From an uncultured delta proteobacterium (GTDB lineage Bacteria; Myxococcota_A; Polyangia; Fen-1088): 64,000 bases of DNA. Numbering within the stretch: the stretch's first letter is position 1; every line of letters starts with the position of its first letter. Under the pieces are notes generated by a model that was given only the letters and a program-made list of their open reading frames with translations, did no database searches and was not told the origin of the DNA. Below are positions 14,831 through 40,137 of this stretch, piece by piece. The translations under genes and the position numbers were made by a program. The DNA lies in contig CAWGPW010000043.1 of assembly GCA_963824555.1 (NCBI GenBank), positions 68,763 through 132,762 of the forward strand, in the 5' to 3' direction.

Positions 14831-14831
14831 G

Positions 14832-19114: not shown

Positions 19115-19143
19115 AACCTTCCGCCGGCACCGGACACACATAG

Positions 19144-19719: not shown

Positions 19720-20906
19720 GCGACTTGCTTCCCGATCCGCCCCGCTGGAAAGAGCGACAGGGCCAGTCCAACCTGGCGGAACGCGAAGCGGGCCGGGCGA
19801 TTCGTTTCATGCACGCGCCCGAGCCGTTGCCCGTTGTGCAGCTCACACGCATCGCCGCCCACATTCGAGCGACACGGCCTCGGCGTCGGACATTCTGGTT
19901 GACCGTGACCGCGGCGCTCCTCTTTGGTGGCGCGACCGTTGCCTCCGCCGCGCACTTGAATGTTCTGCCTGGGTGGTTGACCCGGATCGTGAAACCGCAA
20001 CCGGCCGAGACGGTGCCTCGCAAGCGTGCGTCGCTCGGGTCGTCGAGAAAGACGCCCGCGATTGCCACAGAGCGCGCGCCCACGCCACCTGAGGTGACTT
20101 CCCAGCCAGCCCCGCCCCCACCTGCGCCCGGCCGGCCTGCGCAGGAAGCGACTCCCGCCCATCCAAGCTCCGCCACCACGATGGCCGTCGGTGGTGCCAC
20201 GGGATCTGCCTGGACGCCATCGGCGACGCCCAAGCTCGTGCGAAGATCCAGTGAAACGGCCGCGCTTGAACGCTCGGCAAAGTCGCCGTCGCAGACGAGT
20301 GGGCATTTGCGACTCGGGACACCAGTGATCGAGCCGGCTCCGATGGTCGCCGATCCCTCTGTTTCGACGCGCTCGCCTGTTACCCGGGTGGCCTTGCTTG
20401 AAGAGCCAACCCAGCCTGCGAAACCCGCGCCAGAAGCCGGTGGTGCTCAAGGTACGGCCAGATTCTTGAGCGAGGCCATCCACGCTCTTCGCGTGGAGCA
20501 TTCGCCAGGCACAGCGCTCTTCCTGCTCGATCGCCACGCCACCCAACTCGGCAAGAGCGCGTTCGCTCACGAGGCCTTGCTCCTGCGCGTGGAGGCCATG
20601 CTGGCGCTCCATCGCGGGGACGAGGTTCTGCAACTTCTCGACGGCGCGGCCCTGACCGATGTGGCGGCGTCGCGTGCGCTTCTGGTCACGCGCGGAGAGT
20701 TGCGCGCCAAGGTCAACCGCTGCGCCGACGGACTTGGCGACTTCGATTTGGTGCTGGCCAAGTCGAAGCAGGCCGACCGGCAAGCGCTCTTCGGCCGGGC
20801 TCTGTGCCGCAAGAAGCTTGGCGATCGCATGGGTGCGCAGGCCGATGTGGAGCGCTATCGCCGCGAATTCCCCACCGATCCTCGCCTTCGCGATCTGGAA
20901 CAGTAG
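19716..20906 (+). CDS. Membrane-anchored anti-sigma factor with Pro/Ala-rich linker and C-terminal TPR-like domain
   Basis: ATGA overlap with the sigma gene. Single TM (WLTVTAALLFGGATVASAA). C-terminal helical repeats. Confidence 0.6.
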   Translation: MSDLLPDPPRWKERQGQSNLAEREAGRAIRFMHAPEPLPVVQLTRIAAHIRATRPRRRTFWLTVTAALLFGGATVASAAHLNVLPGWLTRIVKPQPAETVPRKRASLGSSRKTPAIATERAPTPPEVTSQPAPPPPAPGRPAQEATPAHPSSATTMAVGGATGSAWTPSATPKLVRRSSETAALERSAKSPSQTSGHLRLGTPVIEPAPMVADPSVSTRSPVTRVALLEEPTQPAKPAPEAGGAQGTARFLSEAIHALRVEHSPGTALFLLDRHATQLGKSAFAHEALLLRVEAMLALHRGDEVLQLLDGAALTDVAASRALLVTRGELRAKVNRCADGLGDFDLVLAKSKQADRQALFGRALCRKKLGDRMGAQADVERYRREFPTDPRLRDLEQ

Positions 20907-21143
20907 GTTGGTGCCGCGAGGTAGACGCGCGAGCCCCGCTTGACGGAACCTCGTTTCTGGCTCAAGCATGGGCAGCACCATGCTCGCGCTGCTCGCACTT
21001 GTCTTCGCTGTCGACGCCGGATCGGCCGCCGCACCCACAGCCTGGGATTACCGCCTCCCCATCGTGGCGGTCTTCGCGTCTTCACGGAAGGGGTGAAAAT
21101 TCTCCTTGCCTGGAAACGATGAAGTCGCTACCCTCATGGATGC

Positions 21144-21431
21144 GTGATTCACAGCTTCGCGGACGCCCGAACAGCGGATCTCTGGGAGAGCAAGACCAGT
21201 GCCAGAGTTCGGCAAGTCCCGCCCGATGTGCAGCATCGCGCCTTCAAAAAGCTTATCACCATCGATGCGGCGGAAGAGCTCGAGGACTTGAGGCAACCTC
21301 CGTCGAATCGACTGGAGAAGTTGAAGGGGGATCGCGTGGAGCAATACTCCATTCGAGTCAACGATCAATGGAGGATTTGCTTTCGCTGGTTGGGCGGAGC
21401 GCATGACGTCGAACTGACGGATTATCACTAG
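21144..21431 (+). CDS. higB: HigB toxin (RelE/ParE superfamily, plasmid maintenance killer)
   Basis: Motifs ELEDLRQPPSNRLEKLKGDR...YSIRVNDQWRICFRW...VELTDYH are textbook HigB. About 54% GC. Confidence 0.85.
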   Translation: MIHSFADARTADLWESKTSARVRQVPPDVQHRAFKKLITIDAAEELEDLRQPPSNRLEKLKGDRVEQYSIRVNDQWRICFRWLGGAHDVELTDYH

Positions 21432-21471
21432 GAAACCGACAGTAGGGAATTCAGCAGCACCGGAGAGAGAC

Positions 21472-21825
21472 ATGGCATCCATACCAAACAAGGGGCTTCC
21501 AGGCAGAATCACCCCTCACCCAGGCGAGTTTCTGCGAGAGATGCTCGAGGAACTGGGCGTCTCGCAGACGACTTTTCACCAGCGGACAGGCATGTCCATG
21601 CAGAGGATAAGCGAGATCATCAATGGAAAGCGTGGCGTTACTCCCGAGACCGCTTGGATTCTAGGCGGTGCATTTGGCCAGACGCCGAAGTACTGGCTCA
21701 ATCTTCAGGCAATGCACGATCTCACGAGGACAAGGCCGGTGCGACCGGTCGCTCGTATGCCTGAAGCGCTCAAGGCTGCGGGCTCAGTGTCCATTTCTGC
21801 GGTGCTGCGAACGAGGACGTTCTGA
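21472..21825 (+). CDS. higA: HigA antitoxin (XRE-family HTH)
   Basis: HPGEFLREMLEELGVSQTTFHQRTGMSMQRISEIINGKRGVTPETAWILGGAFGQTPKYWLNLQAMHDL is HigA-type HTH. Sits downstream of higB (toxin-first order). Confidence 0.85.
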   Translation: MASIPNKGLPGRITPHPGEFLREMLEELGVSQTTFHQRTGMSMQRISEIINGKRGVTPETAWILGGAFGQTPKYWLNLQAMHDLTRTRPVRPVARMPEALKAAGSVSISAVLRTRTF

Positions 21826-21850
21826 GCTTCTTGTTCGCAACACAACGGCT

Positions 21851-21975
21851 GTCCGCCGCAAAAACTCGGTACGAAGTCGAACCGACCCGAGTTCTCCCGA
21901 GATCTGTCGGGGGCTCGTCTCGTGGGAGGCATTTTTCCGCGATGCTTGGTGAAATCCTCAAGACCGTGCTGAGCG
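21851..21975. repeat. Copy A of a ~125-bp dispersed repeat (coding potential on both strands)
   Basis: GCCGCAAAAACTCGGTACGAAGTCGAACCGACCCGAGTT...CGCGATGCTTGGTGAAATCCTCAAGACCGTGCTGAGCG, about 85% identical to 22716..22838. Confidence 0.6.
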
Positions 21976-22165
21976 AGTTGCCGATCGAGACCATGAGAAT
22001 CCGCGCTTCTTGATCCGCGACTGTGATTCCATGGTGGCCAAGCCATCCTCACTTTGCGCGCCCTGGAGCAAAGCAACCCGTGATGTCCGAAAACCCGTCG
22101 CCGAGGCTCATGCGGCCTTGCGGGAGTAGTAGTTCAGCACGCTCAACGATTTGCCGAGGCAGTGC

Positions 22166-22402
22166 CTAGCGAGTGATCGGTCTTCTTGCCTGATGGTAGA
22201 TACGGACGATTCGAAGAATGTCATCTTCGCGCTGGTAGTAGATTCGATATGGAGAGACAGGCCAGCTCCTTACGATTGCACCGGAACGAAGCCGACGTTG
22301 CGGGCCTTCGAAGTCAGCCTCAGCCAGACGATGTACGAGTTCAGCAATGCTGCCATGCAGGTGCGCTGCAGCAGCCGGATTGCGGCCACGAAGAAACTCC
22401 AA
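22166..22402 (-). CDS. ParE/RelE-family toxin (N-terminus possibly extended via non-ATG start)
   Basis: SPYRIYYQREDDILRIVRIYHQARRP is a ParE-like C-terminal signature. Confidence 0.55.
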   Translation of the reverse strand: MEFLRGRNPAAAAHLHGSIAELVHRLAEADFEGPQRRLRSGAIVRSWPVSPYRIYYQREDDILRIVRIYHQARRPITR

Positions 22403-22446
22403 GGCCCCGAGAAGATTCTACTCGGCCTCCGGAGCAAAGACGACCT

Positions 22447-22662
22447 TCAACGACGCAGGCTTTCTTCGATGCGATGAAATACGGCGCTCGCATCGACCCC
22501 TCGCCCCTGGCGCAGAGATTCGAGGGCCACTTCCAACCCCGCTTCCTCATCAGGTGATAGATCGGGCGCGGCATCGACGGCATCGACGACATAGCGCCTC
22601 TCCGGGAGGGAGCGCAATTCCTGGGGGACATCTCTGCCGTTCCAGTGGAGCACGACGGACAT
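22447..22662 (-). CDS. Putative antitoxin partner of ParE-like toxin (addiction-module component-like). Start uncertain.
   Basis: LSPDEEAGLEVALESL...VDASAVFHRIEESL resembles the LSPEER...L..SL addiction-module antitoxin motif. Lies immediately upstream of the toxin on the same strand. Confidence 0.35.
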   Translation of the reverse strand: MSVVLHWNGRDVPQELRSLPERRYVVDAVDAAPDLSPDEEAGLEVALESLRQGRGVDASAVFHRIEESLRR

Positions 22663-22715
22663 GCAAGGAATGATACCGCACCCATGGTTGGGGGCGCCAG
22701 GCAGGTCATCAACTT

Positions 22716-22838
22716 GTGTGCCGCAGAAACTCGGTACCAGGTCCGACCGACCTCGGGTTTTGCCTGGATTCATCGCCTGATCCGCTTCTGCTAGCCTTTG
22801 CGTCGCGATGCTCATCGAAATCCTCAAGTCCGCGCTGG
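22716..22838. repeat. Copy B of the ~125-bp dispersed repeat
   Basis: GCCGCAGAAACTCGGTACCAGGTCCGACCGACCTCGGGTT...CGCGATGCTCATCGAAATCCTCAAGTCCGCGCTGGGCG. Confidence 0.6.
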
Positions 22839-23126
22839 GCGCACTGCGTTCTCACTTCCGCTCCCGCGCCGCTGCCGCAAGTCGCGGAAATCGCCAACCC
22901 CATCCAGTCGCTCATGCCGCTGCGGGGGACGCTGGCGGCCCTCGACCACATCCAGCGTGTATGCAGCGGTGCGCAAGTCGCCCACCAGCTCCGCTTGGTC
23001 GGCCATCCATTGGTACAGTGGGCTGCCAAGCCAGTTCCGCACGGTCGTCGCCGCACGGTGACCTCGGACGGCTGGCTGAGACCTCTTATCGGATCAGACC
23101 GAGAGCAAGCGGCGATGGCACCGATC

Positions 23127-26425: not shown

Positions 26426-27109
26426 GTGAGCGAACCGGCCGTAACTCCAGAAGCCATCCCCCAGGCTGGGGAAGCAAGCAGGAAAACCGAGCGCCATGTC
26501 TCGGTTTCCACGGTGGAGCGGCTGTCCGTCTACCGCAAGCTCCTGGAAGAGCTGCACTACGACGGCGTAGAATACGTCTACTCGCAGCAATTGGCCGAAA
26601 TGGTCGGGGTGACGCCGGCTCAGCTGCGTCGCGACCTGGCCAGCTTCGGCTCGTTCGGCAACATCAGCCGCGGCTACAACGTCTACCAGCTCACCCGCAC
26701 CATCAGCCACATCTTGGGCACCGATTCGCCCCAAACCGTGGCTTTGTTCGGGGCCGGCGATTTGGGCCGTTCGCTGCTCGCCTACCGCGGCTTCGAGGAG
26801 CGTGGTTTCCACATCGGCCTGATCTTCGATCTGGACGCCGAGAAGGCGGGCAAGGTCTTCGCCGGCCGTCGCTGCTACGCCGTCGAGGACATGGAGAAGG
26901 TCCTGCCCGAGCTCGACGTCCGCATCGCGGTCCTGGCTTGTCGGCCCCCCGGTCTGCAGCAGCTCGTGGACCGGCTGGCCAAGCTTGGAATCTTGTCCAT
27001 TCTCAACTTCGTTCCAAAGCGCGTCACCCCCGCACCAGGAGGCTACGTCGAGAGCATCGACATCGCTGCCAAGCTCGAAAAGCTCTCGTTCCTTAGCCAG
27101 AAGAAGTAG
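26426..27109 (+). CDS. rex: Redox-sensing transcriptional repressor Rex (GTG start inferred)
   Basis: N-terminal winged helix (ERLSVYRKLLEEL, QQLAEMVGVTPAQLRRDL) and Rossmann NAD(H) site (VALFGAGDLGRSLL). Confidence 0.85.
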   Translation: MSEPAVTPEAIPQAGEASRKTERHVSVSTVERLSVYRKLLEELHYDGVEYVYSQQLAEMVGVTPAQLRRDLASFGSFGNISRGYNVYQLTRTISHILGTDSPQTVALFGAGDLGRSLLAYRGFEERGFHIGLIFDLDAEKAGKVFAGRRCYAVEDMEKVLPELDVRIAVLACRPPGLQQLVDRLAKLGILSILNFVPKRVTPAPGGYVESIDIAAKLEKLSFLSQKK

Positions 27110-27159
27110 GTCGGGATGGGCAAGATGTGTACCAAAGGAACGCCACCCCCATGTTAAAA

Positions 27160-27181
27160 CTGTGAAACATTTCACTGTGAA
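27160..27181. promoter_or_regulatory. Rex-like operator(s) upstream of the hydrogenase/regulator operon
   Basis: CTGTGAAACATTTCACTGTGAAC: half-sites TGTGAA-N4-TTCACt plus an overlapping TTCAC-TG-TGAA, about 65 nt upstream of the receiver gene. Confidence 0.55.
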
Positions 27182-27244
27182 CTGGATAACCGATAAGCGT
27201 CTGTTCCGCAATGCACAGTAGGCCCAGGACCAAGGAGAAAAGCC

Positions 27245-27664
27245 ATGAAGAAGCGCGTTTTGCTCGTCGACGATGACAAAGATCTCGTGGGGTCGCTCAA
27301 GGTCGTTCTCGAAGCCAACGGCTTCGAGGTCGCGACCGCCCACAACGGAAGCGACGGGCTGGCGCAGGTGGCCGCGCAGCGTCCCGACGCCATCGTTCTC
27401 GATGTCATGATGGACACCGACACCGAGGGGTTTGGCGTGGCTTACAAGCTGGAAGGCGATCCCGCCACGCGCCGCATTCCCATCGTGCTTCTGACGGGCT
27501 TCATGGACCACATGAAGGAAAAGCGCGAGTCCTTCGACTTCATCACCGGGCGCGATTGGCCGGCGGCGAAGTTGATGAAGAAGCCCGTCGTCGCCGCCGA
27601 GCTCGTGGCCGCCCTTCGCCAGCTTCTTGCCGAGGCGGAAGCCGTCGCCAGCGCGGTTGCCTAG
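27245..27664 (+). CDS. Stand-alone response-regulator receiver (CheY-like) protein
   Basis: 139 aa REC only (LLVDDD...AIVLDVMMD...KKP). No output domain. Confidence 0.8.
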   Translation: MKKRVLLVDDDKDLVGSLKVVLEANGFEVATAHNGSDGLAQVAAQRPDAIVLDVMMDTDTEGFGVAYKLEGDPATRRIPIVLLTGFMDHMKEKRESFDFITGRDWPAAKLMKKPVVAAELVAALRQLLAEAEAVASAVA

Positions 27665-27719
27665 TTCCCTCACCTATTCATCACCAAGCAGCAGCATCGC
27701 AGCACCCGAGGTAAGTCGT

Positions 27720-28202
27720 ATGTGTCAGGTCGATCAGATCATCGCGGGCCATGAGGAGCTTGGCAAAGAGCACCTCATCCCGCTTCTGCAGGAGATTCAG
27801 GCCAAGGAAGGCTACCTATCCCAGGCCGCCATGAACAAGGTGGCGGACGCCACTGGCGTTCCGCAGAGCCGTGTGTTCGGCGTTGCGACCTTCTACAACC
27901 AGTTCCGCTTTGCCCCCAAAGGCGCGCACGTCATCGAGGTGTGCCGGGGCACGGCCTGCCACGTGAAGCAGAGCTTGAAGCTGGCCCAGCACCTGACACG
28001 CAAGCTGAATCTCAAGCCGAACGGCAACTCGCCGGACGACAAGTTCACCGTCATCACGGTGGCTTGCCTCGGGGCGTGCTCCATCGCGCCGGTCATCAAG
28101 CTGGATGGCGAGTTCTACGGCCATCTCGACGTGGAAAAACTCGACCACCTGCTCGACGAGGCCGCGCAAGAGTGCAAAGGGGACAGCCATGCGGTCAAGT
28201 AA
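27720..28202 (+). CDS. NuoE-like [2Fe-2S] thioredoxin-fold subunit of NADH-dependent [FeFe]-hydrogenase (HydC/HndA-like)
   Basis: CRGTACHVKQ...VACLGACSIAPV [2Fe-2S] Cys pattern of the NuoE/HoxE family. Confidence 0.8.
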   Translation: MCQVDQIIAGHEELGKEHLIPLLQEIQAKEGYLSQAAMNKVADATGVPQSRVFGVATFYNQFRFAPKGAHVIEVCRGTACHVKQSLKLAQHLTRKLNLKPNGNSPDDKFTVITVACLGACSIAPVIKLDGEFYGHLDVEKLDHLLDEAAQECKGDSHAVK

Positions 28203-30201
28203 TCTGATTGCGGCGTGCTGCGAGCGCTGCACCCACCGGCCGGGCAACCCGTGTCGCGATTTGATCCGCTGCTTGGCCGAGGGGCCGATCTGTCACAGCG
28301 ACGATGCCTGCGCGAAGATGCGGCAAGAGCGCCTGGCGAATGCTCGGCGAGGCGGGCAGGGGACGCTCATCTTCGTCGGCGCCGGTACCTGCGGACGCGC
28401 CAACGGATCCACCAAGGTCATCGCCAGGATCGGTGCGTTCTTGGAAGAGCACAAGATCGCGGCGGAGCTCGTCGAGGTCGGATGCGTCGGCTACTGCCAG
28501 CGCGAGCTCTTCGTCGACATTCAGAAGCCAGGCGAGCCCAGGCTGGCCTACGCGGACATCAATCTGGGCAACGTCGATCAGTTGCTCGAAGCCGTGCTCC
28601 TGCGCCATGAAATGCGCAACGGCTTCCTCTACGGCCGGCATGGCGATGGCGGTCCGGCCTGGGCCGACGTTCCGGAAATCAACACCACTGATTTCTTCAA
28701 GAAGCAGGTGAAGGTGGTGCTGCGCAACTCGGGCATCATCGACCCGAGCACTCTCGATGCGGCGCTGGCGGCTGGAGCCTTCAAAGCCGCAGCCAAGGCG
28801 GTTTGCACCATGACGCCGGAGGAAGTCTGCAACGAAGTGTTGGCCGCCGGCCTGCGCGGACGCGGCGGTGCGGGTTTCCCGACCGGGCAAAAATGGAACA
28901 TCGCCCGCCAGACCCCGCGCGCGCAGAAGTACCTCATCTGCAACGCGGACGAGGGCGATCCCGGCGCCTTCATGGATCGCGCCGTGCTCGAAAGCGATCC
29001 CTTCTTCGTCATCGAGGGCATGCTCATCGCCGCCTACGCCATCGGCGCCAGCAAGGGCTACATCTACTGCCGGGCCGAGTACCCCTTGGCCGTCGAGCGT
29101 TTGACATCTGCCATCGCCCAATGCCGGCGCGTGGGCCTGCTCGGCAACAATATCCTCGGCAGCCTGTTTTCGTTCGACATCACCATCAAGCAGGGCGCCG
29201 GCGCCTTCGTGTGCGGCGAAGAAACCGCCATCCTGGCCAGCATCGAAGGTGGGCGCGGCATGCCCAGGCCGAGGCCGCCGTATCCCGCCGTCAGCGGCCT
29301 TTTCTGTAAGCCCACGGTGCTCAACAACGTCGAAACCCTGGCCAATGTGCCGGTCATCATCAATCGCGGCGCCGAGTACTTTCAGAATCTCGGGTTGGGC
29401 AAGGCGGCGGGCACCAAGGTGTTCGCGCTCTCCGGCGCCATCCGCAACACTGGCCTCGTGGAGGTTCCCGTCGGCATCAAGCTGCGTACCATCATCGAAG
29501 AGATCGGCGGCGGCGCGCTGCCGGGCCACAGGTTCAAGGCGGTGCAAATCGGCGGTCCGTCGGGCGGCTGCATTCCGGAGCAGCACCTCGACACGGTGAC
29601 CGACTACGCGGCCCTCATCGAGCTCGGCGCCATGATGGGGTCGGGCGGCATGGTGGTGATGGACGAACGCACCTGCATGGTCGACGTCGCTCGCTACTTC
29701 ATGGAGTTCATCCGCAACGAATCCTGCGGCAAGTGCACCCCGTGCCGCGAAGGCACCACGCGCATGCTGGAGATTCTGACCTCCATCACCGAGCGTCCGG
29801 TGGGCGACGAGGAACGGCGCCTGGAGCGTTTCCGCGGCGTGCTTCACCTGCAAGAGCTCGCCAGCACGGTCAAGGAAGCCTCGCTGTGCGGGCTCGGTCA
29901 ATCGGCGGGCAACCCGGTGCTGTCCACGCTGCGCTTCTTCCGTGACGAATACGAACGTCACGTCATCGACCAGCGCTGCCCCTCGGGCGAGTGCCAGGGG
30001 CTGGCCGTGTACGAGGTCGACAATGCCACCTGCATCGGGTGCCTTCTGTGCAAGAAGGCTTGCCCAAGCAACGCCATCGTCGGCGAACGCAAGCAGGCCC
30101 ACTACATCCTGGTCGACAAGTGCGTCGGCTGCGGCACCTGCGTCACCGCGTGTCCCAAGCATTCCATTCACCTTGTTAGCGAAGAGAGGGCCTGCGTATG
30201 A
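28189..30201 (+). CDS. NuoF-like NADH-binding FMN/FeS subunit (HydB/HndC-like) with N-terminal 2Fe-2S domain and C-terminal 2x[4Fe-4S]
   Basis: GLRGRGGAGFPTGQKW (FMN/NADH site). SCGKCTPCREG. C-terminal CIGCLLCKKACP...CVGCGTCVTACP. Overlaps neighbours (ATGA at both ends). Confidence 0.85.
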   Translation: MRSSNLIAACCERCTHRPGNPCRDLIRCLAEGPICHSDDACAKMRQERLANARRGGQGTLIFVGAGTCGRANGSTKVIARIGAFLEEHKIAAELVEVGCVGYCQRELFVDIQKPGEPRLAYADINLGNVDQLLEAVLLRHEMRNGFLYGRHGDGGPAWADVPEINTTDFFKKQVKVVLRNSGIIDPSTLDAALAAGAFKAAAKAVCTMTPEEVCNEVLAAGLRGRGGAGFPTGQKWNIARQTPRAQKYLICNADEGDPGAFMDRAVLESDPFFVIEGMLIAAYAIGASKGYIYCRAEYPLAVERLTSAIAQCRRVGLLGNNILGSLFSFDITIKQGAGAFVCGEETAILASIEGGRGMPRPRPPYPAVSGLFCKPTVLNNVETLANVPVIINRGAEYFQNLGLGKAAGTKVFALSGAIRNTGLVEVPVGIKLRTIIEEIGGGALPGHRFKAVQIGGPSGGCIPEQHLDTVTDYAALIELGAMMGSGGMVVMDERTCMVDVARYFMEFIRNESCGKCTPCREGTTRMLEILTSITERPVGDEERRLERFRGVLHLQELASTVKEASLCGLGQSAGNPVLSTLRFFRDEYERHVIDQRCPSGECQGLAVYEVDNATCIGCLLCKKACPSNAIVGERKQAHYILVDKCVGCGTCVTACPKHSIHLVSEERACV

Positions 30202-31919
30202 GCCTCGTCAACTCACTGTCCATAGACGGAAGAGAAGTTCAATTCACCTCCGGCGAGACGGTGCTCTCGGCGGCCTTGCGCGCGGGGATCGAGATCCCGC
30301 ACCTGTGCTCGATGGATTGGGCCTGCAAGCCCGAGGCGGCCTGTCGCGTCTGTTTGGTCGAGCTCGAAGGCGTGCCGCGCCTGCAGACGAGCTGCACCCT
30401 CGAGGCCAAAGACGGCCAGAAGGTGCGCACCCGCTCGCCGCGCGTGCAGGCCGTGCGCCGCAACATCGTCGAGCTACTCATCGCCAACCACCCGGGCGAC
30501 TGCCTGACGTGCGCGCGCAACCAGAACTGCGAGCTGGCCCAGGTAGCCAGCGAGCTCGGCGTGCGCGAGCGACGCTACCGCGGTCTCAAGAAGAACCACC
30601 CCCTCGATCTGTCCTCGCCGGCTCTCGTGCGCGATCCCAACAAGTGCATCCTGTGCGGACGTTGCGTGGCCGTGTGCCACCAGGTGCAGGGCGTGGGCGC
30701 CATCGACTTCATCGACCGCGGCTTCAAGACGCGCGTCGGGCCTGGCTTCCACGACGGCATCAACGTGTCGAATTGCATCTTCTGCGGTCAGTGCACGCGG
30801 GTGTGCCCGACTGCGGCCCTGATGGAGAAGAGCCAAGTCGACGCCGTGGTGGCGGCGCTGGCGGACCCCAACGCTATCGTCGTCGCGCAGGTCGCCCCGG
30901 CGGTCCCGGCCACGCTGATGGAGAATGCGCAGTCGAGCTCGGTGCGCACCATGCTGCTGCGACTGGCGGCGGCGCTCAAGCGCGTCGGCTTCGACGCCGT
31001 GTTCGACACCGGCTTCGCCGCCGACCTGACCATCATGGAGGAGGTCTCCGAGCTGATTCGGCGGGTGCAGACGGGCGGTCCCCTGCCTATGTTCACCAGC
31101 TGCTCGCCTGGCTGGATCCAATACGTCGAGAAGTACCGGCCCGACCTCATTCCGCACCTGTCCACCTGCAAGTCGCCGCAGCAGATGGCGGGAGCGCTGA
31201 TCAAGGACGTGTACCCCAAGCACCGCGATCTGGGTGGCAAGCGACTGGTGTGCGTGTCGCTCATGCCGTGCACGGCGAAGAAGGTCGAAGCCAGCGAGCT
31301 TGGCGACGTCGACTTCGTCCTGACCACGCGCGAGATCGATGAGCTACTGGTCCGCTTCGGCATCGATCTCGACAAGGTCACCGAGCTTGGCTCCCTCGAT
31401 GCGCCCTTCTCCTCGGCCAGCGGCGCGGGACGACTCTTCGGCGGCACGGGTGGTGTCATGGAGGCGGCCATTCGCACCGCGCACAAGATGCTTACGGGCA
31501 GCGAGCTCAAGGGCGGCTTCAAGGTCGAGGAGGCGCGTGGGCTCGAAGGCATCAAGTGCTTCTCGCTCGACGTGGGCGGGACCACGCTCAACTTCGGCAT
31601 CGTCAACGGCCTCGGGCGTCTCAAGCCCATTCTCGATCCGCTCGCCAAAGGCGTGTCCAATCTGCACTTCATCGAGGTCATGACCTGCCCCGGCGGTTGC
31701 ATCGGCGGCGGTGGCCAGCCCTACGACTCGGATCCCGAAGTCATTCGCGTCCGGCTCGAACGCCTCTACGACGCTGACCGGCGCTCGACCCTCAAGACCT
31801 CGCACGACAATGACGAGGTTCAAGAGCTCTACGCCGAGATGCTTGGAAAACCCTTGGGCGAGCTGAGCCACCACCTGCTTCATCGCAGCTACATCGATCG
31901 GCGAGCAGAGGAGAGATAG
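30198..31919 (+). CDS. hydA: [FeFe]-hydrogenase catalytic subunit (HydA/HndD-like) with variant L1 motif TSCSPGW
   Basis: N-terminal 2Fe-2S + 4Fe-4S domains. H-cluster motifs L1 FTSCSPGW, L2 MPCTAKKVE, L3 EVMTCPGGCIGGGGQP. Confidence 0.85.
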   Translation: MSLVNSLSIDGREVQFTSGETVLSAALRAGIEIPHLCSMDWACKPEAACRVCLVELEGVPRLQTSCTLEAKDGQKVRTRSPRVQAVRRNIVELLIANHPGDCLTCARNQNCELAQVASELGVRERRYRGLKKNHPLDLSSPALVRDPNKCILCGRCVAVCHQVQGVGAIDFIDRGFKTRVGPGFHDGINVSNCIFCGQCTRVCPTAALMEKSQVDAVVAALADPNAIVVAQVAPAVPATLMENAQSSSVRTMLLRLAAALKRVGFDAVFDTGFAADLTIMEEVSELIRRVQTGGPLPMFTSCSPGWIQYVEKYRPDLIPHLSTCKSPQQMAGALIKDVYPKHRDLGGKRLVCVSLMPCTAKKVEASELGDVDFVLTTREIDELLVRFGIDLDKVTELGSLDAPFSSASGAGRLFGGTGGVMEAAIRTAHKMLTGSELKGGFKVEEARGLEGIKCFSLDVGGTTLNFGIVNGLGRLKPILDPLAKGVSNLHFIEVMTCPGGCIGGGGQPYDSDPEVIRVRLERLYDADRRSTLKTSHDNDEVQELYAEMLGKPLGELSHHLLHRSYIDRRAEER

Positions 31920-31930
31920 AGTATTCAGCC

Positions 31931-33956
31931 ATGGGCGTGATTCAGACCATCCTGCAGAATTGCCGCCGCTGCTACTCGTGCGTGCGCGAGTGCCCGGCCA
32001 AGGCGATCAAGATCGTCGACGGCCAGGCGTCGGTGGTCAAAGAGCGCTGCATCGCCTGCGGCAACTGCACGGTGGTCTGTTCGCAAAACGCCAAGGCCTA
32101 TGCCAGCGGCATCGAGCGGGTTTGCCAGCTTCTGGCTGGCGGCGGTCCGGTGGTGGCCATGGTGGCGCCGTCCTTTCCCGCGGATGACTGCGGCCAGGAT
32201 CCGGGGCGTCTCGTCGGGGCGTTGCGCGCACTCGGCTTTTCCCACGTGGTCGAGGTCGCCTACGGGGCGGATCTCACCAACAAGGCCTACCGCGCGTACA
32301 TCAAGGAGCACCCCACGGGCACGCGCCTGGCCACGGCGTGCCCGGCGCTGGTCGAGTACGTGCGCAAATACGCGCCCCATCTGGTGGACTGCCTGATTCC
32401 CATCGTGTCGCCCATGATCGCGACGGCGATGGCGGTCAAGGCGCTCTATGACCAGTCGCACGCCTGCGTCTTCATCGGGCCGTGTGTCGCCAAGAAGCTG
32501 GAGATGCAAGATCCCAACGTGCCGGCCGTCGTCGATGGCGTGCTGACCTTCGACGAGCTGAGGCGACTCTTCGCCGAGCGCGGGGTGCAGGTCGGCGACG
32601 CCACATCGGGCGAGTTCGATCCGCCGCATGCCGGTTCCGGGCGGCTCTATCCCCTGGTTGGTGGTTTGCTCAAGGGTGCCGGTCTCGAGCGCAGCTCGCT
32701 CAACGCCGAGGTCATGGTGCTATCGGGCGCGCCCGAGATTCTCGATGTCCTGGCCGACCTGCGCCCAGACGACCCGCAGCCGCTCTTCATCGAACCGCTC
32801 ATGTGCCGTGGTTGTTACAGCGGTCCCGCCACGCACGGGGACAAGCGGCGCCCGCAGCGTAAGCGGCGCGTGGCCGACTACGTGAAGTCGCGCATGGACG
32901 AGACTGCCGAGGCGTCGATGGAATTGCCTGCGCTCGATCTCGGACGCACCTTTACGGTCGACGATCAACGCCTGAAAGAGCCGAGCGAGCAGGAAATCAG
33001 GGTCATTCTCGCTCGCACCAACAAGTTCGCCACCGAGGACGAGCTCAACTGTGGGGCGTGCGGCTACGAATCCTGCCGTGCCAAGGCCGTGGCCGTGTAC
33101 CGCGGGCTGGCCGAAGAGGCCATGTGCCTACCCTTCATGATCGAGCAGGCCGAGCGCGTGTGTCACGAGCTGAACGTCCCCTGGCCCAACCTCAAGGACA
33201 TCCACCGCCACCTCATCAACACCGAGAAGCTGGCCTCCATGGGGCAGATGGCGGCCGGTGTGGCGCACGAGCTGAACAACCCCCTCGGCACCATCCTGCT
33301 CTATACCAACCTGCTTGCGCGCAAGCTCAAGGACCGGCCCGAGCTCGATCATGATTTGAAACTGCTCGTCGACGAGTCCAACCGCTGCAAGAAAATCATC
33401 GGCAACCTGCTCGACTTCGCCCGGCAGAACCGGGTGCAACTGGAACGCACGAATGTGGCCGAGCTTTTTCAGCGCGTGGTCGAGGATTCGCTCTTCACCT
33501 TGCGCGACACGGGATCCGCCTTGCGCATCACCTGCGAAGCACCGCCCGATCTGCACGTCGATCTCGACAAAGATCAGATCGGCCAGGTGCTCATCAACCT
33601 GGTCAAGAACGGCATCGAGGCCATGGAAGGCAAAGAGGGCACGGTGCGCCTGGTGGCCGTCGACGAGCCGGCGACCGGACGCGTGCGCATGGCGGTCAGC
33701 GACGAGGGCCGGGGCATCGCGCCGGAGGCCCGCGACAAGGTCTTCCAACCGTTCTTCACCACCAAGAGCCTCGGTCGAGGCACCGGGCTCGGCCTGCCCA
33801 TCGCCTACGGCATCGTCAAGATGCACGGCGGACGGATTCTGGTTCGATTCGGATCCCGTGTGCGGAACCACGTTCACCCTGGAATTGCCCAAAACCCAGT
33901 CGCTGCGAAGGAGTCACCTGTATGGCGAAGAGCCCCAAGATTCTGTTTGTCGATGA
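31931..33956 (+). CDS. Sensory [FeFe]-hydrogenase-like (HydS-type H-cluster domain) fused to histidine kinase. Contains a +1 frameshift at ~33836-33840.
   Basis: 2x[4Fe-4S] ferredoxin N-term. H-cluster-like motifs ATACPALV / IGPCVAKKLE / EPLMCRGCYSGP. Cx2Cx4Cx16C motif (CGACGYESC...16...C). HisKA H-box GVAHELNNPLGTI. HATPase (GRGTGLGLPIAYGIVKMHGG), then the frame changes. The downstream frame gives WFDSDPVCGTTFTLELP. Confidence 0.7.
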
Positions 33957-34344
33957 CGACCGAGATTTTCTTGCCGCGCAGACCGCTTTTTTCGGTGGGC
34001 GTGGCTACGAGGTCGTCACCCTCGACCGCGTGGAAGGCGCCCTGGAACGCATCAGTCAGGAGCGGCCCGATGTCATCGTGCTCGACCTCATGATGGAGCA
34101 CTACGATTCGGGCTTCATGCTCGGGCGGCGCATCCGGCAAGACCCGGCCATGCTCGAGGTTCCCATCCTCATGCTGTCGGGCGTGGCGGCGGCGACGGGA
34201 CACAAGTTCGCCGCCGAGGCCGCGGCGCTCAAGGATTGGATCAAGCTCGACGCCTTTCTGGACAAGCCGGTGACCGGCCGCCAGCTGCTCAAGGTCGTCG
34301 AGGAAAAGCTCGGGGCACGAGGCGCGGCTACGGCCACGGGATAA
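33922..34344 (+). CDS. Stand-alone response-regulator receiver protein (paralog of 27245..27664)
   Basis: 141 aa REC only (ILFVDDD...VIVLDLMMEH...DKP). Confidence 0.8.
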   Translation: MAKSPKILFVDDDRDFLAAQTAFFGGRGYEVVTLDRVEGALERISQERPDVIVLDLMMEHYDSGFMLGRRIRQDPAMLEVPILMLSGVAAATGHKFAAEAAALKDWIKLDAFLDKPVTGRQLLKVVEEKLGARGAATATG

Positions 34345-34346
34345 CC

Positions 34347-35805
34347 GTGCCCAGCATCCTGGTCATCGACGACGAATACGGCGTTCGCTCGGGGATTCGC
34401 CAGATCCTCGAGCTGGAAGGCTACGCCGTGGAGGTCGCAGCGACCGGGCGCGAGGCCCTGGAGCTTCTCGACCAGCGACCGTTCGACATCGCGCTCATCG
34501 ACTACCAACTGCCCGATCTCGATGGGCTGACCCTGCTGGCATCCATGCGCAGCCGCAAGCTCGCCACCATGACCTGCATGATCACGGCCTACGCCAACAT
34601 CGATACCGCCATCGCCGCCACCCGGCAGGGTATCGATTTCTTCCTGCCCAAGCCGTTCTCGCCCGACGATCTTCTCGGCGTCATCGAGACGTTGTCGCGC
34701 CATAAGCAGCTCAAAGAGGAAGCGGAGAAGCTGCGCAAGGAGAACGAGGCCAACCTGCTTGCCCTGGCCACCGAGAAAAGCCAAACCAGCTCGCTGGTGG
34801 CGTCCCTGCGCGACGCCGTCCTGGTCATCAATCGCGAGCGCGAGGTGGTGCTGGTCAACCACGCCATGTCCGCCTTGCTCGGCCGCGCGCCCAACAATTT
34901 GGTGCGCGCGCCTGTCGACGAGGTGCTCGGGGCTGCGCCCTTGTCCGGGCTGGCCGACTTGCTTTCCGCCCAGGGCGATGAGGAACGCAAGCTCGCCGAG
35001 CTCACCATCGGCGACCGCATCTTCTTCGCCAGCGTGGTCGCCTTTCATGGCGAGCAAGGGGAAGCTCTCGGTCGCATCCTGACCCTGGCCGACGTGACCG
35101 ACGTGCGCCGCATGGCCATGGAAAAGCCGCGTTTCATTCGCACCATGGTGCATGAATTCCGCTCTCCCCTCGGCGCCATCCGCAGTCTCATCGAGGTGGC
35201 CACCGAAAAGAGCCTGGGCGCCGACCTTGCGCCGTACTTGCCCTTTCTCGAACGTGCGGACAAGCGCATCGACAAGATGGTCGAGCTGATCGGCGAGCTG
35301 CTCTCGCTCTCGCGCATCGATCTGGAGCGGACCACAAATGTCGCGGAGCCCCCAGCGGACGTCTCGGTGGCTGTGGCCGCGACCCTGGATCTGTACCGGG
35401 AAAAACTCGTCGAGCGCAGGATCACTGCCAGCGTGGATGCCGCTCCCGACCTGCCGCGCGCGCGCATCGGCGACGAGGATTCTGAGGACCATCCTTTCCA
35501 ACCTGGTGGGCAATGCCATCAAATACGGTCGGGACGATGGTTCTTTGCGCCTGCGCGTGGTCCAGCACGAAGGCAAGCTCCACATCGAGGTCGCGGATTC
35601 AGGGATCGGCATCCGTGCCGAGAATCTGCCCCAAGTGTTCCAGGAGTTCTTTCGCGAGAAGCGCTCCGAGACGCGTGACATCGACGGCAACGGACTTGGG
35701 CTGGCCATCGTCAAGCGTCTGGTCGAGCGGGTGGGAGGCCAGATCGAGGTCGAAAGCACCCTCGGCGTGGGCTCGCTCTTTCGCGTGATTCTTTGCCCCG
35801 CCTAA
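34347..35805 (+). CDS. Hybrid receiver-PAS-histidine kinase. GTG start. Contains a +1 frameshift at ~35478-35484.
   Basis: N-terminal REC (ILVIDDE...IALIDYQLPDLDG). PAS-like middle. H-box MVHEFRSPLGAIRS. The HATPase block (ILSNLVGNAIKYG...GNGLGLAIVKRLVE) lies in the +1 frame (ORF 35338..35805). Confidence 0.7.
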
Positions 35806-35905
35806 ACCTCGGCGGCCAAGTTGGCGATACATCGCATGCAATCTTGCGACGGCGGCGTCGTTGCGATAGACGCTGGTCGCACTCTCCATCGCCTCCCGTG
35901 CACCC

Positions 35906-38377
35906 ATGACTCAAACGACTCCCGAGACCTCTGGCCCCGATCTGGCCGCGCTGCGCGACTTGCTGGCGAGCTGGCCGGATCTCAAGCCGCGCAACCTGAT
36001 CGCCGTCTTGCAACGCACGCAGGAAGCCTACGGCTACCTGCCCATGGAGGCGCTGGACGCCATCGCCGACAGCATGCACATCGCCGAGGCGCGGGTGTAC
36101 GGCGTGGCCACCTTCTACTCGCAGTTTCGCCTGAAACCGCAGGGCGAGCACGTCATCCAGGTGTGCAACGGCACCGCCTGCAACGTGAAGGGATCGGAAG
36201 ATCTGCTGGGCGAGCTGGTGGCGGTGCTGGGCATCCACCCCGGCGACACCACCCCCGACGGCAAGGTGACGCTTGAAAAGGTGAATTGCGTGGGCGCCTG
36301 CGGCGTGGCGCCGGCCATCGTCGTCGACGGCGAGGTGCACGGCCGTGTGACCCCCAAGTTGGTCGGGCGATTGGCGCGCAAGCTCCTCACCGCGCCGAAG
36401 CCAGTGGTCCTCTCGCGCAAATCCGCGGCCGAGAAGGTCCGCGGGCGCACCTTTCTCGAGCGCTGCTGCGACAAGTGCCAGAACCGTCCCGGCACGCCGT
36501 GCCCGAACTTTCTGCTTTGTCGCATGGAAGGCGTTTCCTGCCACGACGACGAACAGTGCGGGAAGTTCCGTGAGGAATTGCGCCAACTGGCCGAGCACAA
36601 CGCGCCCCAGTACGCGGCCACGGCCTTTCTGTGCAAGGGCCTGACCTGCGACGCCAGCGACGAGCCGGGGGTGTACAAGACCTTCCTTTCAGAACTGAAG
36701 AAACGCGGACTGACGGGCAAGGTCAATTTCATCGAGACCGGCTGCCAGGGACTGTGCGAGGTGGGCCCAATCGTGCAGCTCAAGCCTCTCGAAGCCTTCT
36801 ACTGCCGCGTGAAGGCCGCCGATGTGGCCGAGATCGTCGAGAAACACATCCTCGGCGGTCAGATCGTCGAGCGCCTGCTCTACGCCCCCGGCCACGTGAC
36901 GGAAGCCTCGATTCCGTTCTACAGCAAGCAAGTCCGCCGCGTGCTTTCCAACACCGGTAAGATCGATCCCGAGAACATCGACGAATACATCGCCCGCGAG
37001 GGGTACAAGGCGCTCTACAAAGCGCTCAAGGAAATGACGCCCGAGCAGGTCATCGCCGACGTGACTGCGGCGGGCTTGCGTGGCCGTGGCGGCGGTGGGT
37101 TCCCCACGGGCAAGAAATGGGAGATTGCGCGAGCCCAGGCCGACAGCACCCGCTACATCGTGTGCAACGCCGACGAGGGCGACCCGGGCGCGTTCATGGA
37201 TCGCAGCCTTCTCGAAGGCGATCCGCACCGCGTGCTCGAAGGCATCCTCATCGCGGCCTACGCCATCGGTGCCGAGCAAGCCTTCATCTACTGCCGGGCC
37301 GAGTATCCGCTGGCTATCCGCCGCCTGGAAATCGCCATGGCCCAGGCGCGGCTGTACGGATTGATCGGTCCCAATATTCTTGGGACCGGCAAGAGCCTGC
37401 ACGTGGAGATCGTGCAAGGCGCGGGCGCCTTCGTGTGCGGCGAGGAGACCGCCATGCTCTCCAGCATCGAGGGCAAGCGCGGCATGGCCCGCAACAAGCC
37501 GCCCTATCCGGCCCAGCACGGTTTCGCCGGACATCCGACCTGCGTGAACAACGTGGAAACCTTCGCCAATGTGCCGCTGATTCTGGCCAAGGGCGTGGCG
37601 TGGTTTCGCAGCGTGGGGACGGAGAAGAACGCCGGTACCAAGATTTTCTCGCTGTCGGGCAAGATCAAGAACACCGGTCTCGTCGAGGTGCCCATGGGCA
37701 TCACCCTGCGCGAGCTGCTGCACGACATCGGCGGCGGCGCGCCCGAGGGTTCGACCATCAAGGGCGCGCAGACCGGCGGTCCGTCGGGCGGGTGCATCCC
37801 GGCCGATCGCATGGATGTCACCGTCGACTACGAAAGCCTGAGGCGGCTGGGCGGGATGATGGGCTCGGGCGGCTTGGTGGTCACCGATTCGGGCACCTGC
37901 ATGGTGAGCTTCGCCAAGTTCTTCCTGGGGTTCACCCAGCACGAATCGTGCGGCAAGTGCATCCCGTGCCGCGAAGGCACCAAGCGCATGCTCGAGATCC
38001 TGGAACGGATCACGGATGGCAAGGGCAAGATGGAGGACATCACCGAGCTGCGCCACCTGGCGCTCGTCATCTCGCGTACCTCGGCCTGCGGACTCGGGGC
38101 CTCGGCGCCGAGCCCCGTGGTGTCGACCCTGCGCTACTTCGAGCACGAGTACGTGTCGCACATCAAGGACACGCGCTGCCTGGCCGGCGTGTGCCGCTCG
38201 CTGCTCACCTACCACATCCTGGCCAACTGCCGCGGTTGCGGCCTGTGCGCGCGCGGCTGTCCCGTCCAGTGCATCAGCGGCGACAAGGGCGAGATGTACG
38301 TCATCGACAACGCCCGCTGTATCAAGTGCGGCGAGTGCAACCGGGTATGTCCCTTCGGCGCCGTGGCGCGCACCTAG
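35906..38377 (+). CDS. NuoE-NuoF fusion subunit of a second NADH-dependent/bifurcating-type [FeFe]-hydrogenase
   Basis: 823 aa. N-terminal NuoE-like 2Fe-2S (CNGTACNVKG...VGACGVAPA). Extra Cys-rich linker. NuoF core (GLRGRGGGGFPTGKKW, SCGKCIPCREG). C-terminal 2x[4Fe-4S]. Confidence 0.85.
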   Translation: MTQTTPETSGPDLAALRDLLASWPDLKPRNLIAVLQRTQEAYGYLPMEALDAIADSMHIAEARVYGVATFYSQFRLKPQGEHVIQVCNGTACNVKGSEDLLGELVAVLGIHPGDTTPDGKVTLEKVNCVGACGVAPAIVVDGEVHGRVTPKLVGRLARKLLTAPKPVVLSRKSAAEKVRGRTFLERCCDKCQNRPGTPCPNFLLCRMEGVSCHDDEQCGKFREELRQLAEHNAPQYAATAFLCKGLTCDASDEPGVYKTFLSELKKRGLTGKVNFIETGCQGLCEVGPIVQLKPLEAFYCRVKAADVAEIVEKHILGGQIVERLLYAPGHVTEASIPFYSKQVRRVLSNTGKIDPENIDEYIAREGYKALYKALKEMTPEQVIADVTAAGLRGRGGGGFPTGKKWEIARAQADSTRYIVCNADEGDPGAFMDRSLLEGDPHRVLEGILIAAYAIGAEQAFIYCRAEYPLAIRRLEIAMAQARLYGLIGPNILGTGKSLHVEIVQGAGAFVCGEETAMLSSIEGKRGMARNKPPYPAQHGFAGHPTCVNNVETFANVPLILAKGVAWFRSVGTEKNAGTKIFSLSGKIKNTGLVEVPMGITLRELLHDIGGGAPEGSTIKGAQTGGPSGGCIPADRMDVTVDYESLRRLGGMMGSGGLVVTDSGTCMVSFAKFFLGFTQHESCGKCIPCREGTKRMLEILERITDGKGKMEDITELRHLALVISRTSACGLGASAPSPVVSTLRYFEHEYVSHIKDTRCLAGVCRSLLTYHILANCRGCGLCARGCPVQCISGDKGEMYVIDNARCIKCGECNRVCPFGAVART

Positions 38378-38394
38378 AGGAACGGAGACTTGCC

Positions 38395-40137
38395 ATGAGC
38401 GACGTCAATCTGATCATCAACGACCTGCCGGTGAGCGTTCCCGCCGGCTCGACGATTCTCGAAGCCGCGCAGGCGCTGAGCATCCGCATTCCTACCCTGT
38501 GCTACGACAAGCAGCTCACGGTGTCGGGCGCCTGCCGCCTGTGCGTGGTAGAGGTGGCCAATCCCACGGGCTCCACGCGGCTCGAGCCGTCATGCTCGTT
38601 TCCAGTGCAAGAAGGTATGCGGGTGCGGACCAACACGCGCGAGCTGCGCGATGCCCGCCGCACCATCATCGAGCTGATCCTGGCCAACCATCCGCGCGCT
38701 TGCCAGACCTGCATTCGCAACCAGCGCTGCAGTCTGCAGGATGCCTGTCGTGAATACGGCATCGACAAGATCCGCTACGAGGGCGAAAAGCGGCATCACG
38801 CCGTCGATGCTTCGTCGGTGGCCATCACGCGCCACCCGGACTACTGCATCCTGTGCGGTAAGTGCGTGAAAGTCTGCAAGGAAGTGCAGGGCGTGTACGC
38901 ACTGGATTTCGTCAACCGCGGCTTTTCGACCACGGTGCTGCCGCCCTTCGATCGCGACCTCGCCGACACGGTCTGCGTGTTGTGTGGGCAGTGCTTGCTC
39001 AAGTGTCCGGTCGCAGCCATCCGCGACAAGAGCTACATCAAGACGGTTGCCGATGCGCTGGAAGATCCGGACAAGATCGTCACCGTTCAAATCGCACCCT
39101 CGGTGCGGGCCACCGTTGGCGAGCTCTTCGGCCTTCCCCCGGGCGTGTCGTTGACCCGCAAACTGCCGACCGCGCTTCGCCGCGTCGGTTTCAAGTACAT
39201 CTTCGATACCGATTTCGGCGCCGACATGGCGGTCATGGAGGAAGGCCACGAGCTCGTGGCGCGCTTGCAGAAAGGCGGGCCGTATCCGCTCATCACCAGT
39301 TGCTCCCCGGGCTGGGTGAAGTTCATGGAGCACTTCTTCCCCGAGCTCATTCCGAACACGTCTTCGGTCAAGTCGCCGCAGCAGATTCTCGGCGTGCTGA
39401 CCAAGACGTTCTTCGCCGAGCGCAATGGCATTGACCGCAAGAAGCTCTTCAACGTCTCGATCATGCCGTGCTCGGCCAAGAAGTTCGAGATCCAGCGCCC
39501 CGAACACCGTCTGGACGACGGCACCCCCGAGGTGGACGCCGTCCTGACCACGCGCGAGCTCGGCGACTTGCTCAAGATGCACGACATCGACCTCCCGTCG
39601 CTGCCCGAGTCGGCCTTCGACCCCATCCTGGGCGAAACCACGGGCGCCGGTCTGATCTTCGGCGTGACCGGCGGTATGATGGAGGCCGCGCTGCGCACGG
39701 TGGCCGCGGTGATGGACCCCCATACCGAGCCGCGCATGGAGTACTCGGTCTTGCGCGGAACCGGGGGCATCAAGCGCGGCTCGGTGCTGATCGGCGAGCG
39801 CGAGATTAGGCTTTGCGCCGTGCACGGGCTGGCCAACGCGCGCAAAATCCTCGATGACCTTCGTGCGGGCCGCGAGGAAATCCACTTCCTGGAAGTCATG
39901 GCCTGTCCCGGCGGCTGCATCGGCGGCGGTGGTCAGCCCTTGCCCACCGACGAGGAAACCCGCCGCAGGCGCATCGAGGCCATGTACGCCGAGGATCGCG
40001 GCATGCCCATTCGGCAATCGCACAAGAACCCGGCCGTTCGCACGGTGTACGACGAGTTCCTGGGCGAGCCCTGCGGCGAGAAGGCGCACCACCTTCTGCA
40101 CACGCACTACGCCGCCCGCTCGCCACGCGGGTTCTAA
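38395..40137 (+). CDS. hydA: [FeFe]-hydrogenase catalytic subunit, second copy, also with L1 = TSCSPGW
   Basis: Good RBS (AGGAACGGAGAC). Motifs ITSCSPGW, IMPCSAKKFE, EVMACPGGCIGGGGQP. The last 257 bp are duplicated at 42173..42429. Confidence 0.85.
   Translation: MSDVNLIINDLPVSVPAGSTILEAAQALSIRIPTLCYDKQLTVSGACRLCVVEVANPTGSTRLEPSCSFPVQEGMRVRTNTRELRDARRTIIELILANHPRACQTCIRNQRCSLQDACREYGIDKIRYEGEKRHHAVDASSVAITRHPDYCILCGKCVKVCKEVQGVYALDFVNRGFSTTVLPPFDRDLADTVCVLCGQCLLKCPVAAIRDKSYIKTVADALEDPDKIVTVQIAPSVRATVGELFGLPPGVSLTRKLPTALRRVGFKYIFDTDFGADMAVMEEGHELVARLQKGGPYPLITSCSPGWVKFMEHFFPELIPNTSSVKSPQQILGVLTKTFFAERNGIDRKKLFNVSIMPCSAKKFEIQRPEHRLDDGTPEVDAVLTTRELGDLLKMHDIDLPSLPESAFDPILGETTGAGLIFGVTGGMMEAALRTVAAVMDPHTEPRMEYSVLRGTGGIKRGSVLIGEREIRLCAVHGLANARKILDDLRAGREEIHFLEVMACPGGCIGGGGQPLPTDEETRRRRIEAMYAEDRGMPIRQSHKNPAVRTVYDEFLGEPCGEKAHHLLHTHYAARSPRGF
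39881..40137 (+). repeat. Direct repeat copy 1 (native 3' end of hydA2, 257 bp)
   Basis: About 99% identical to 42173..42429. Differences: CAGCCC vs CAGCTC, stop TAA vs TAG. Confidence 0.8.

Follow-up and report, generated by a model that had tools for sequence, protein, structure and literature searches.

A single T shared by the frame breaks of two kinase genes is probably a consensus error of a long-read metagenome assembly

Results

In the window (the whole stretch of DNA analysed here, 64,000 nt), the octamer GGATTCTG is found at 33834-33841 and at 35477-35484, and each of these copies spans a +1 frame break in a kinase gene. The same event accounts for both breaks, namely the addition of a single T to GGATCTG, which gives GGATTCTG. 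These two breaks are probably context-dependent consensus errors (from assembly or polishing) of a long-read metagenome assembly, and would then be absent from the DNA of the organism. As judged by sequence comparison, the underlying genes are most likely intact and would encode a 674-aa HydS-type hydrogenase-kinase and a 485-aa hybrid kinase. A first-pass annotation had reported that the octamer lies across both frame junctions and that both genes carry a +1 shift caused by a single-nucleotide insertion. The octamer is indeed at both positions, the coding frames switch accordingly (31931.. to ..33956 and 34347.. to ..35805) and a single nucleotide is inserted at each site. The observation as a whole is confirmed in part: the breaks stand, the extra base and the domain placement given for the first site do not, and breaks of this kind are not unique to the kinase genes.

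The first gene (31931-33956, forward strand) matches Pfam models for 4Fe-4S, the [FeFe]-hydrogenase H-cluster domain, FeS, HisKA and HATPase_c. As deposited, its 0 frame continues to 34093 (720 aa), and removal of T33837 gives a product of 674 aa, equal in length to the intact orthologue carried by contig L003. The repaired kinase part aligns through to the end of the kinase models. Its 3′ end overlaps the start of an intact gene for a single-domain response regulator of 140 aa (33922-34344, forward strand; Pfam Response_reg), and the exact response regulator protein is also found on the Logan contig L001 (SRR28012008_57055). This contig corresponds to positions 32478-34769 of the window (2,291 nt) at all bases but T33837, which is missing. 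It reads GGATCTGG at the first site, and the HydS gene is called on it in a single frame with a stop 35 nt into the next gene; the 930 nt located 3′ of the site are identical in the window and in this intact contig. A second SRR28012008 contig is 100% identical to the window over 2,834 nt. From these two contigs, the same population appears to exist with an intact HydS gene.

The extra base at this first site (33834-33841, forward strand) is T33837 or T33838, inserted into an ancestral GGATCTG read as the codons CGG ATC TGG (R-I-W). It had been annotated as a C, but both the L001 sequence and the closest orthologues, which read CGG ATC TGG, identify it as a T. It had also been proposed that both breaks come between the H-box and the ATPase domain. 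This holds for the second site, between HisKA and the N-box, and not for the first, which Pfam places within HATPase_c, past the G2 box, at position 91 of a profile of 111. Because the first site is located so late in HATPase_c, the displaced part amounts to no more than about 25 residues at the C terminus.

The second gene (34347-35805, forward strand, GTG start) encodes a hybrid kinase whose REC, PAS, HisKA and HATPase_c domains are recovered by Pfam on its two halves. The 0 frame, as deposited, stops at 35678 without an ATPase domain, and the removal of one T, either 35480 or 35481, gives a protein of 485 aa. The displaced ATPase domain still matches the whole of HATPase_c (E = 2.9e-27) and has a positive codon-usage score. 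At this site (35477-35484, forward strand) the ancestral GGATCTG is read as GAT CTG (D-L). The insertion of a T, as already annotated, is upheld at T35480/T35481 by related loci and homologues, which have neither the extra base nor an extra residue. Homologues of the hybrid kinase number 120 among the matches listed (57-92% identity), and exactly 485 aa is the length of most of the best 60 of these 120. A recognisable N-box is present in 56 of these best 60 homologues, and all 56 read ..[DE][DEN][LF][KRG][TASI].. before the N-box, with no extra residue. As for DNA of the same strain over the second site, the exact downstream protein of 823 aa was absent from the records, a C-terminal fragment search in this region gave no identical partial protein, and no record was found for the +1-frame ORF 35338-35805. 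In the ten 90% clusters nearest to the hybrid kinase no member exceeds 94% identity and none is a same-strain copy, and scans of JGI metagenomes for this site, with patterns admitting either allele, produced 0 matches.

Orthologous loci were compared in 10 cases (77-97% nucleotide identity), taken from both short-read and long-read MAGs, the closest relatives being long-read MFD MAGs. The extra base of the first site is absent in 10/10 of them and that of the second site in all 8 loci aligning there, which read GAT or GAC followed by CTG, CTC, CTT, TTG or TTC. The comparison with related genomes that had been suggested as a check therefore places both junctions in frame throughout. One truncated homologue (P0170) resembled a recurrent frameshift and was rejected, its break being in a different frame and at a different position on a contig (L002) that is broken throughout.

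The octamer is not enriched in the window (3 copies, 2.2 expected). Its third copy, at 2189-2196, lies inside ORF 143-2452, where the coding frame is unchanged. If single-base insertions are placed at random, two of them have a spanning 8-mer in common with P = 0.00135.

We identified further frame breaks elsewhere in the window. An isolated extra T at 56435 (reverse strand) is located in codon 3 (ATG GAG C[T]T CTC..) of a gene for a 304-aa LpxD-like hexapeptide acyltransferase (NCBIfam LpxD-like match), where it leaves the true start and the rest of the coding sequence in different frames. This T is missing from another contig of the same run (SRR28012008_181827, about 56209-61413), which otherwise differs from the window by 6 substitutions. 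An independent same-strain assembly thus lacks the extra base both at the first kinase site and at 56435. The IorA-like gene (POR_N and TPP_enzyme_C; 14835-16448, reverse strand) shows six consecutive +1 breaks by three-frame reading, with its Pfam pieces spread over three frames, and the Logan contig L084 encodes the C-terminal 211 aa of IorA in one frame. Between 15031 and 15470, 13 substitutions and 4 indels distinguish this contig from the window, and local substitutions in IorA relative to the contig of the run are in tenfold excess. In the IorA region, the deposited sequence is thus of locally poor quality. Outside IorA the error density is low, with about 3 in 62 kb. The weak coding signal between 16.6 and 23 kb prompted a search for additional frameshifts, in which Pfam detected only an ECF sigma factor and no split domains.

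All nine frame breaks of the window are net +1 insertions, and the three isolated ones all convert T to TT before CT, although TCT/AGA represents only 2.1% of positions. The presence of same-type lesions in genes unrelated to the kinases (six in IorA, one in the LpxD-like gene) points to assembly error. Three exact proteins of the window are also recorded on a contig of 0.2-1 Mb, presumably the source of the window, and such a length in an uncultured Myxococcota lineage suggests that long reads were assembled.

Discussion

Of the three possibilities that the first-pass annotation had left for the kinase breaks, a sequencing error recurring at a motif has the best support, given the L001 contig without the T, the orthologues without the extra base and the further TCT to TTCT lesions. 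A single T would have been wrongly added to GGATCTG in both kinase genes, yielding GGATTCTG, by an error process that depends on context (T-CT to TT-CT). Such a context dependence would explain why the same octamer is seen at both sites, and the octamer would itself be functionless. Each extra T lies directly 5′ of a C where C and T are silent alternatives (ATC/ATT Ile, CTG/TTG Leu, CTC/CTT Leu), so that both alleles of a C/T polymorphism may have been kept when a consensus was drawn from mixed strains. A retained synonymous transition is mimicked by 22% of random insertions, which gives P ~0.01 for three out of three, and this model is only suggestive. An error linked to GANTC or GATC methylation motifs was also considered and is unsupported, GATTC being present 132 times for 146 expected and GATC being hit at only 2 of about 190 sites. 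Methylation-linked nanopore errors are described, in the papers considered here, as substitutions and not as insertions, which also counts against consensus error. So do other observations. Seven other GGATCTG sites of the window are intact, and neighbouring genes of a single signalling module carry two of only three isolated insertions, a somewhat unlikely outcome if they are randomly placed. Moreover, two of four SRR28012008 contigs differ from the window by 0.1-0.4% substitutions, so that the two are not always one haplotype and genuine variation between strains could account for the T.

The insertions may alternatively be real and recent, one strain having lost both H2-sensing kinases by two independent T duplications at GGATCTG while its hydrogenase genes stayed intact; the loss of the first kinase could have left the second free to follow, or the loss of sensing could have been selected. 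The location of both insertions in adjacent genes of one pathway would fit such a scenario, the strain-level substitutions just mentioned make variant alleles plausible, and the spanning 8-mer shared by the two sites could mark a mutational hotspot. We nevertheless consider it unlikely. At the first site the intact allele is carried by an otherwise identical haplotype (L001), neither lesion is present in any orthologue or homologue compared, and there is no decay 3′ of the breaks, with no further disabling change or loss of coding signal downstream of either site, as would be seen in a decaying pseudogene. Seven more insertion-only breaks affect unrelated genes of the window, and relaxed selection cannot yield the cluster of breaks and substitutions found in IorA beside near-identical flanks. 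Spontaneous indels in bacteria are deletion-biased and occur mostly in repeats, whereas the tract involved here is a single T. The independent inactivating mutations proposed in the annotation are thus a weaker fit to the pattern than error, since an intact allele exists and other lesions are also insertions only. That both T are genuine, a subpopulation of this uncultured Myxococcota lineage having knocked out both kinases of its H2 relay by duplicating the same T of GGATCTG twice over, is in our estimate improbable.

The occurrence of one octamer at both junctions, with a +1 shift each time and a weak GAGG/GGA purine stretch just 5′, could also recall a programmed ribosomal frameshift or recoding site, at which regulated slippage would give full-length kinases. 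However, the junction is encoded in frame by every aligned orthologous locus at either site (10/10 and 8/8) and by the 56 N-box homologues, an in-frame allele of the first site exists in the same strain (L001), and the octamer at 2189-2196 is itself read in frame. The 0-frame codons, AUU CUG GUU and GAU UCU GAG, contain no stop and no obvious hungry codon, CUG and GAG being common codons in this 64% GC genome, and RNA structure at the sites is not outstanding (z-scores from -1.6 to +1.5). The suggestion of a recoding site is therefore unsupported by conservation, by any slippery, stop or rare-codon signal or by RNA structure, and programmed frameshifting, to which we attach very little probability, is effectively excluded. 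The coexistence of intact and broken alleles of the first site in what appears to be one population might instead suggest phase-variable switches toggling the sensing module by slipped-strand mispairing or transcriptional slippage. The tract only varies from T to TT, well under slipping length, and Tandem Repeats Finder detected no tandem repeat at either site; such switches are extremely improbable.

On the evidence, the H2-sensing module is very probably intact. The main value of the finding is as a caution, since annotation of the sequence as deposited would yield two kinase pseudogenes and H2 sensing would be misread as lost. The sequence should also be flagged for sporadic single-base insertions and for one badly degraded gene (IorA), and its other split genes, odd starts and apparent pseudogenes should be distrusted pending a check of the reads. 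Were the insertions real, they would represent a small case of parallel loss in a regulatory pathway, and could indicate a context-specific insertion hotspot, perhaps linked to GATC, as well as selection for constitutive or unregulated expression of the hydrogenases.

The first kinase gene resembles putative sensory [FeFe]-hydrogenase/histidine kinase fusions (HydS-type, "group C") in beginning with a 4Fe-4S domain, in combining an H-cluster domain with an additional FeS motif and in ending with a kinase output. Pfam finds HisKA and HATPase_c on the same protein as the H-cluster domain and Response_reg genes on the 3′ side, and the gene adjoins these response regulators between two HydABC-type hydrogenase operons. 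From its domains and neighbours, we consider it a putative HydS-type gene. The two breaks resemble prfB-type +1 frameshifting in that translation must shift by +1 to reach full length and purine-rich sequence is located 5′, but they differ by having no in-frame stop, no conservation in orthologues and an in-frame allele in the same strain. The indel errors of long-read or mixed-strain assemblies offer a closer parallel, with the differences that errors are sparse here outside IorA and that we found no citable documentation for TCT to TTCT as an error motif. In such assemblies, isolated 1-nt insertions likewise break otherwise perfect genes into adjacent ORFs and do not recur when the same population is assembled from k-mers. 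Such insertions are likewise context specific and insertion only, and are accompanied by a locally degraded stretch, here IorA. The related JGI contig L002, on which the hydrogenases and both kinases are fragmented, represents an extreme form of the same phenomenon.

Organization of the hydrogenase and sensing region

The window has a GC content of 64%, and two complete HydABC-type [FeFe]-hydrogenase operons were identified between 27.2 and 40.1 kb (27245-40137) with Pfam and NCBIfam profiles. The same profiles delineate the subunits of the first operon (27726-28199 and 28201-30201) and its HydA (30198-31919); an extra single-domain response regulator (27245-27664) lies upstream of this operon. 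The second operon includes a fused NuoE/NuoF-like gene of 823 aa (35906-38377) and a HydA (38392-40137) scoring above the NCBIfam cut-off for group A6. The regulatory block sits between both operons. It consists of a HydS-type kinase gene starting at 31931 (4Fe-4S domain, H-cluster domain, FeS motif, HisKA and HATPase_c), a 140 aa response regulator (33922-34344) and, from a GTG start at 34347, a REC-PAS-HisKA-HATPase_c hybrid kinase. The same two-operon and sensing-block layout is present on the JGI metagenome contig L003.

Frame breaks in the two kinase genes

As reported in the first-pass annotation, the octamer GGATTCTG is present in the HydS-type kinase gene at 33834-33841 (site 1) and in the hybrid kinase gene at 35477-35484 (site 2). 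Translations, domain matches on either side and a codon-usage scan agree on a +1 frame change at each of these copies. The observation is real in the deposited sequence, with two details corrected. The extra base at site 1, described as a C, is a T, as indicated by an independent assembly of run SRR28012008 (Logan contigs) in which T33837 is absent. Both breaks had also been described as separating the H-box from the ATPase domain; this holds for site 2, located just before the N-box, but not for site 1, which lies inside HATPase_c at position 91 of 111 of the Pfam profile, downstream of the G2 box, so that only the last ~25 residues are displaced. The octamer is not over-represented in the window (3 copies versus 2.2 expected), and its third copy, at 2189, causes no change of frame.

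A search for exact matches to the response regulator protein recovered a 2,291-nt Logan contig (SRR28012008_57055) that matches window positions 32478-34769 everywhere except for the missing T33837. At site 1 this contig reads GGATCTGG (CGG ATC TGG, R-I-W), and its hydrogenase-kinase is called in one frame. Without the extra T, the HydS-type gene of the window encodes 674 aa, and the intact orthologue on L003 has precisely the same number of residues. For site 2, protein look-ups and metagenome scans found no spanning DNA from the same strain. Removal of one T of 35480/35481 gives a hybrid kinase of 485 aa, and most of the closest 60 of the 120 homologues listed (57-92% identity) have exactly this length. 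The N-box is recognisable in 56 of these 60 proteins, none of which has an extra residue before it; the preceding pattern is a pair of acidic/Asn residues followed by Leu or Phe and, in most cases, Lys/Arg-Thr.

The comparison with orthologous loci called for in the first-pass annotation covered, at the DNA level, 10 loci of 77-97% identity, drawn from Myxococcota/Polyangia MAGs and from metagenome contigs. None of the ten carries the extra base at site 1, and neither does any of the eight that align at site 2. In both genes the lesion is therefore identical: GGATCTG has gained one T. The nearest relatives are long-read MFD MAGs. In the long-read MAG MFD05502.bin.2.118 (contig CAWCMR010000003.1), the hybrid kinase (P0014) is recorded as 460 aa instead of 485 aa, and tblastn matches residues 1-484 on this contig; the shorter record could reflect another start call or an N-terminal lesion. 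A related 14-kb JGI contig (3300056870, Ga0562386_05165) is a very noisy assembly with nearly all module genes in pieces (HydS, hybrid kinase, HydB, HydA); its truncated kinase P0170 is broken near site 2, in a different frame.

Other lesions in the window

Frame breaks are not peculiar to the kinase genes. On the minus strand, an IorA-like gene (POR_N and TPP_enzyme_C; 16448-14835) shows six successive +1 frame changes by codon-usage scan, three-frame reading and Pfam matches. Downstream of it IorB (14357-14845) is intact, as is a phenylacetate-CoA-ligase-like gene (13019-14347). A Logan contig of SRR28012008 covers the 3' part of IorA in one frame; compared with the window, it shows 13 substitutions and 4 indels over the 3' 440 nt of the gene, versus only 6 substitutions over 1.6 kb flanking this stretch. 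Also on the minus strand, a gene for an LpxD-like hexapeptide acyltransferase of 304 aa (~55528-56444) carries an extra T at 56435, in codon 3 (ATG GAG C(T)T CTC), so that the true ATG is no longer in frame with the gene. ORF lists do not reveal this frameshift, as no stop closes the frame further upstream. The T is missing in the Logan contig SRR28012008_181827, whose differences from the window over ~56209-61413 amount to 6 substitutions and one indel. A further contig of this run is 100% identical to the window over 27061-29894.

Over the ~12.4 kb compared with Logan contigs, the window has five extra bases and one missing, and the net change is +1 in all nine of its frame breaks. The three isolated insertions (33837, 35480/1 and 56435) all convert T to TT before CT; TCT/AGA occupies only 2.1% of window positions. 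Elsewhere, the coding signal is weak or ambiguous at 18100-23100, a region containing an ECF sigma factor (19144-19719) and a 715-aa ORF (18759-20906) without Pfam match; no split domains were found there. A tandem repeat at 61384-61725 (87-nt unit, 3.9 copies, 99% identical) holds two short palindromes per unit, GCCTGCCGGC..GCCGGCAGC and GGGAACCC..GGGTTCCC; since it is the entire unit that is repeated, it does not resemble a CRISPR array.

Origin of the frame breaks

Among the options raised in the first-pass annotation, a programmed or recoding site was rejected: the extra base is unconserved in orthologues and homologues, an in-frame allele of site 1 exists in the same strain, the shift codon is not followed by a stop or rare codon, and no RNA structure stands out at the sites. 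The in-frame third octamer also argues against programmed frameshifting. Phase variation was rejected too, no repeat tract being present at the sites; taken jointly, recoding and phase variation are very improbable. Recent knock-out mutations in one strain are a less remote but still unlikely explanation. The window and the SRR28012008 contigs are not always of the same haplotype, it is somewhat unexpected that two of the three isolated insertions affect neighbouring genes of a single pathway, and a spanning 8-mer common to two random insertions has P = 0.00135. However, an intact site 1 allele exists on an identical haplotype, no decay is seen downstream of the kinase breaks, the same kind of lesion affects unrelated genes, and only insertions are favoured. 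Furthermore, relaxed selection cannot yield the cluster of substitutions and indels in IorA beside near-identical flanks.

Recurrent sequencing error is thus the best of the options initially proposed, and both kinase breaks are probably assembly or consensus artefacts, judging from these sequence comparisons. The extra base is missing from the independent assembly of the same population wherever this can be checked (site 1 and 56435), and one locally degraded stretch, in IorA, accompanies the isolated insertions. Exact matches to three window proteins also point to a second record on a contig of 0.2-1 Mb, presumably the source; for an uncultured lineage of soil or sediment, this size would suggest that the assembly was built from long reads, like the nearest MFD MAGs. 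The octamer common to both sites would result from errors that depend on sequence context and affected two GGATCTG copies; the seven other GGATCTG copies of the window are unaffected, so the error process would not be deterministic. GATC/GANTC methylation was considered as a cause and is unsupported. More specifically, the consensus may have retained the two alternative bases of a silent C/T polymorphism (ATC/ATT, CTG/TTG, CTC/CTT), a version that we suggest only weakly. All three isolated insertions, and most of those in IorA, are compatible with this version, which would also account for the clustering of indels where haplotypes diverge; 22% of random insertions would mimic this pattern by chance, giving P ~0.01 for three out of three. 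The frame breaks would then represent no new biological feature. Insertion-only, context-dependent and each located in an otherwise perfect gene, these lesions look like residual consensus errors.
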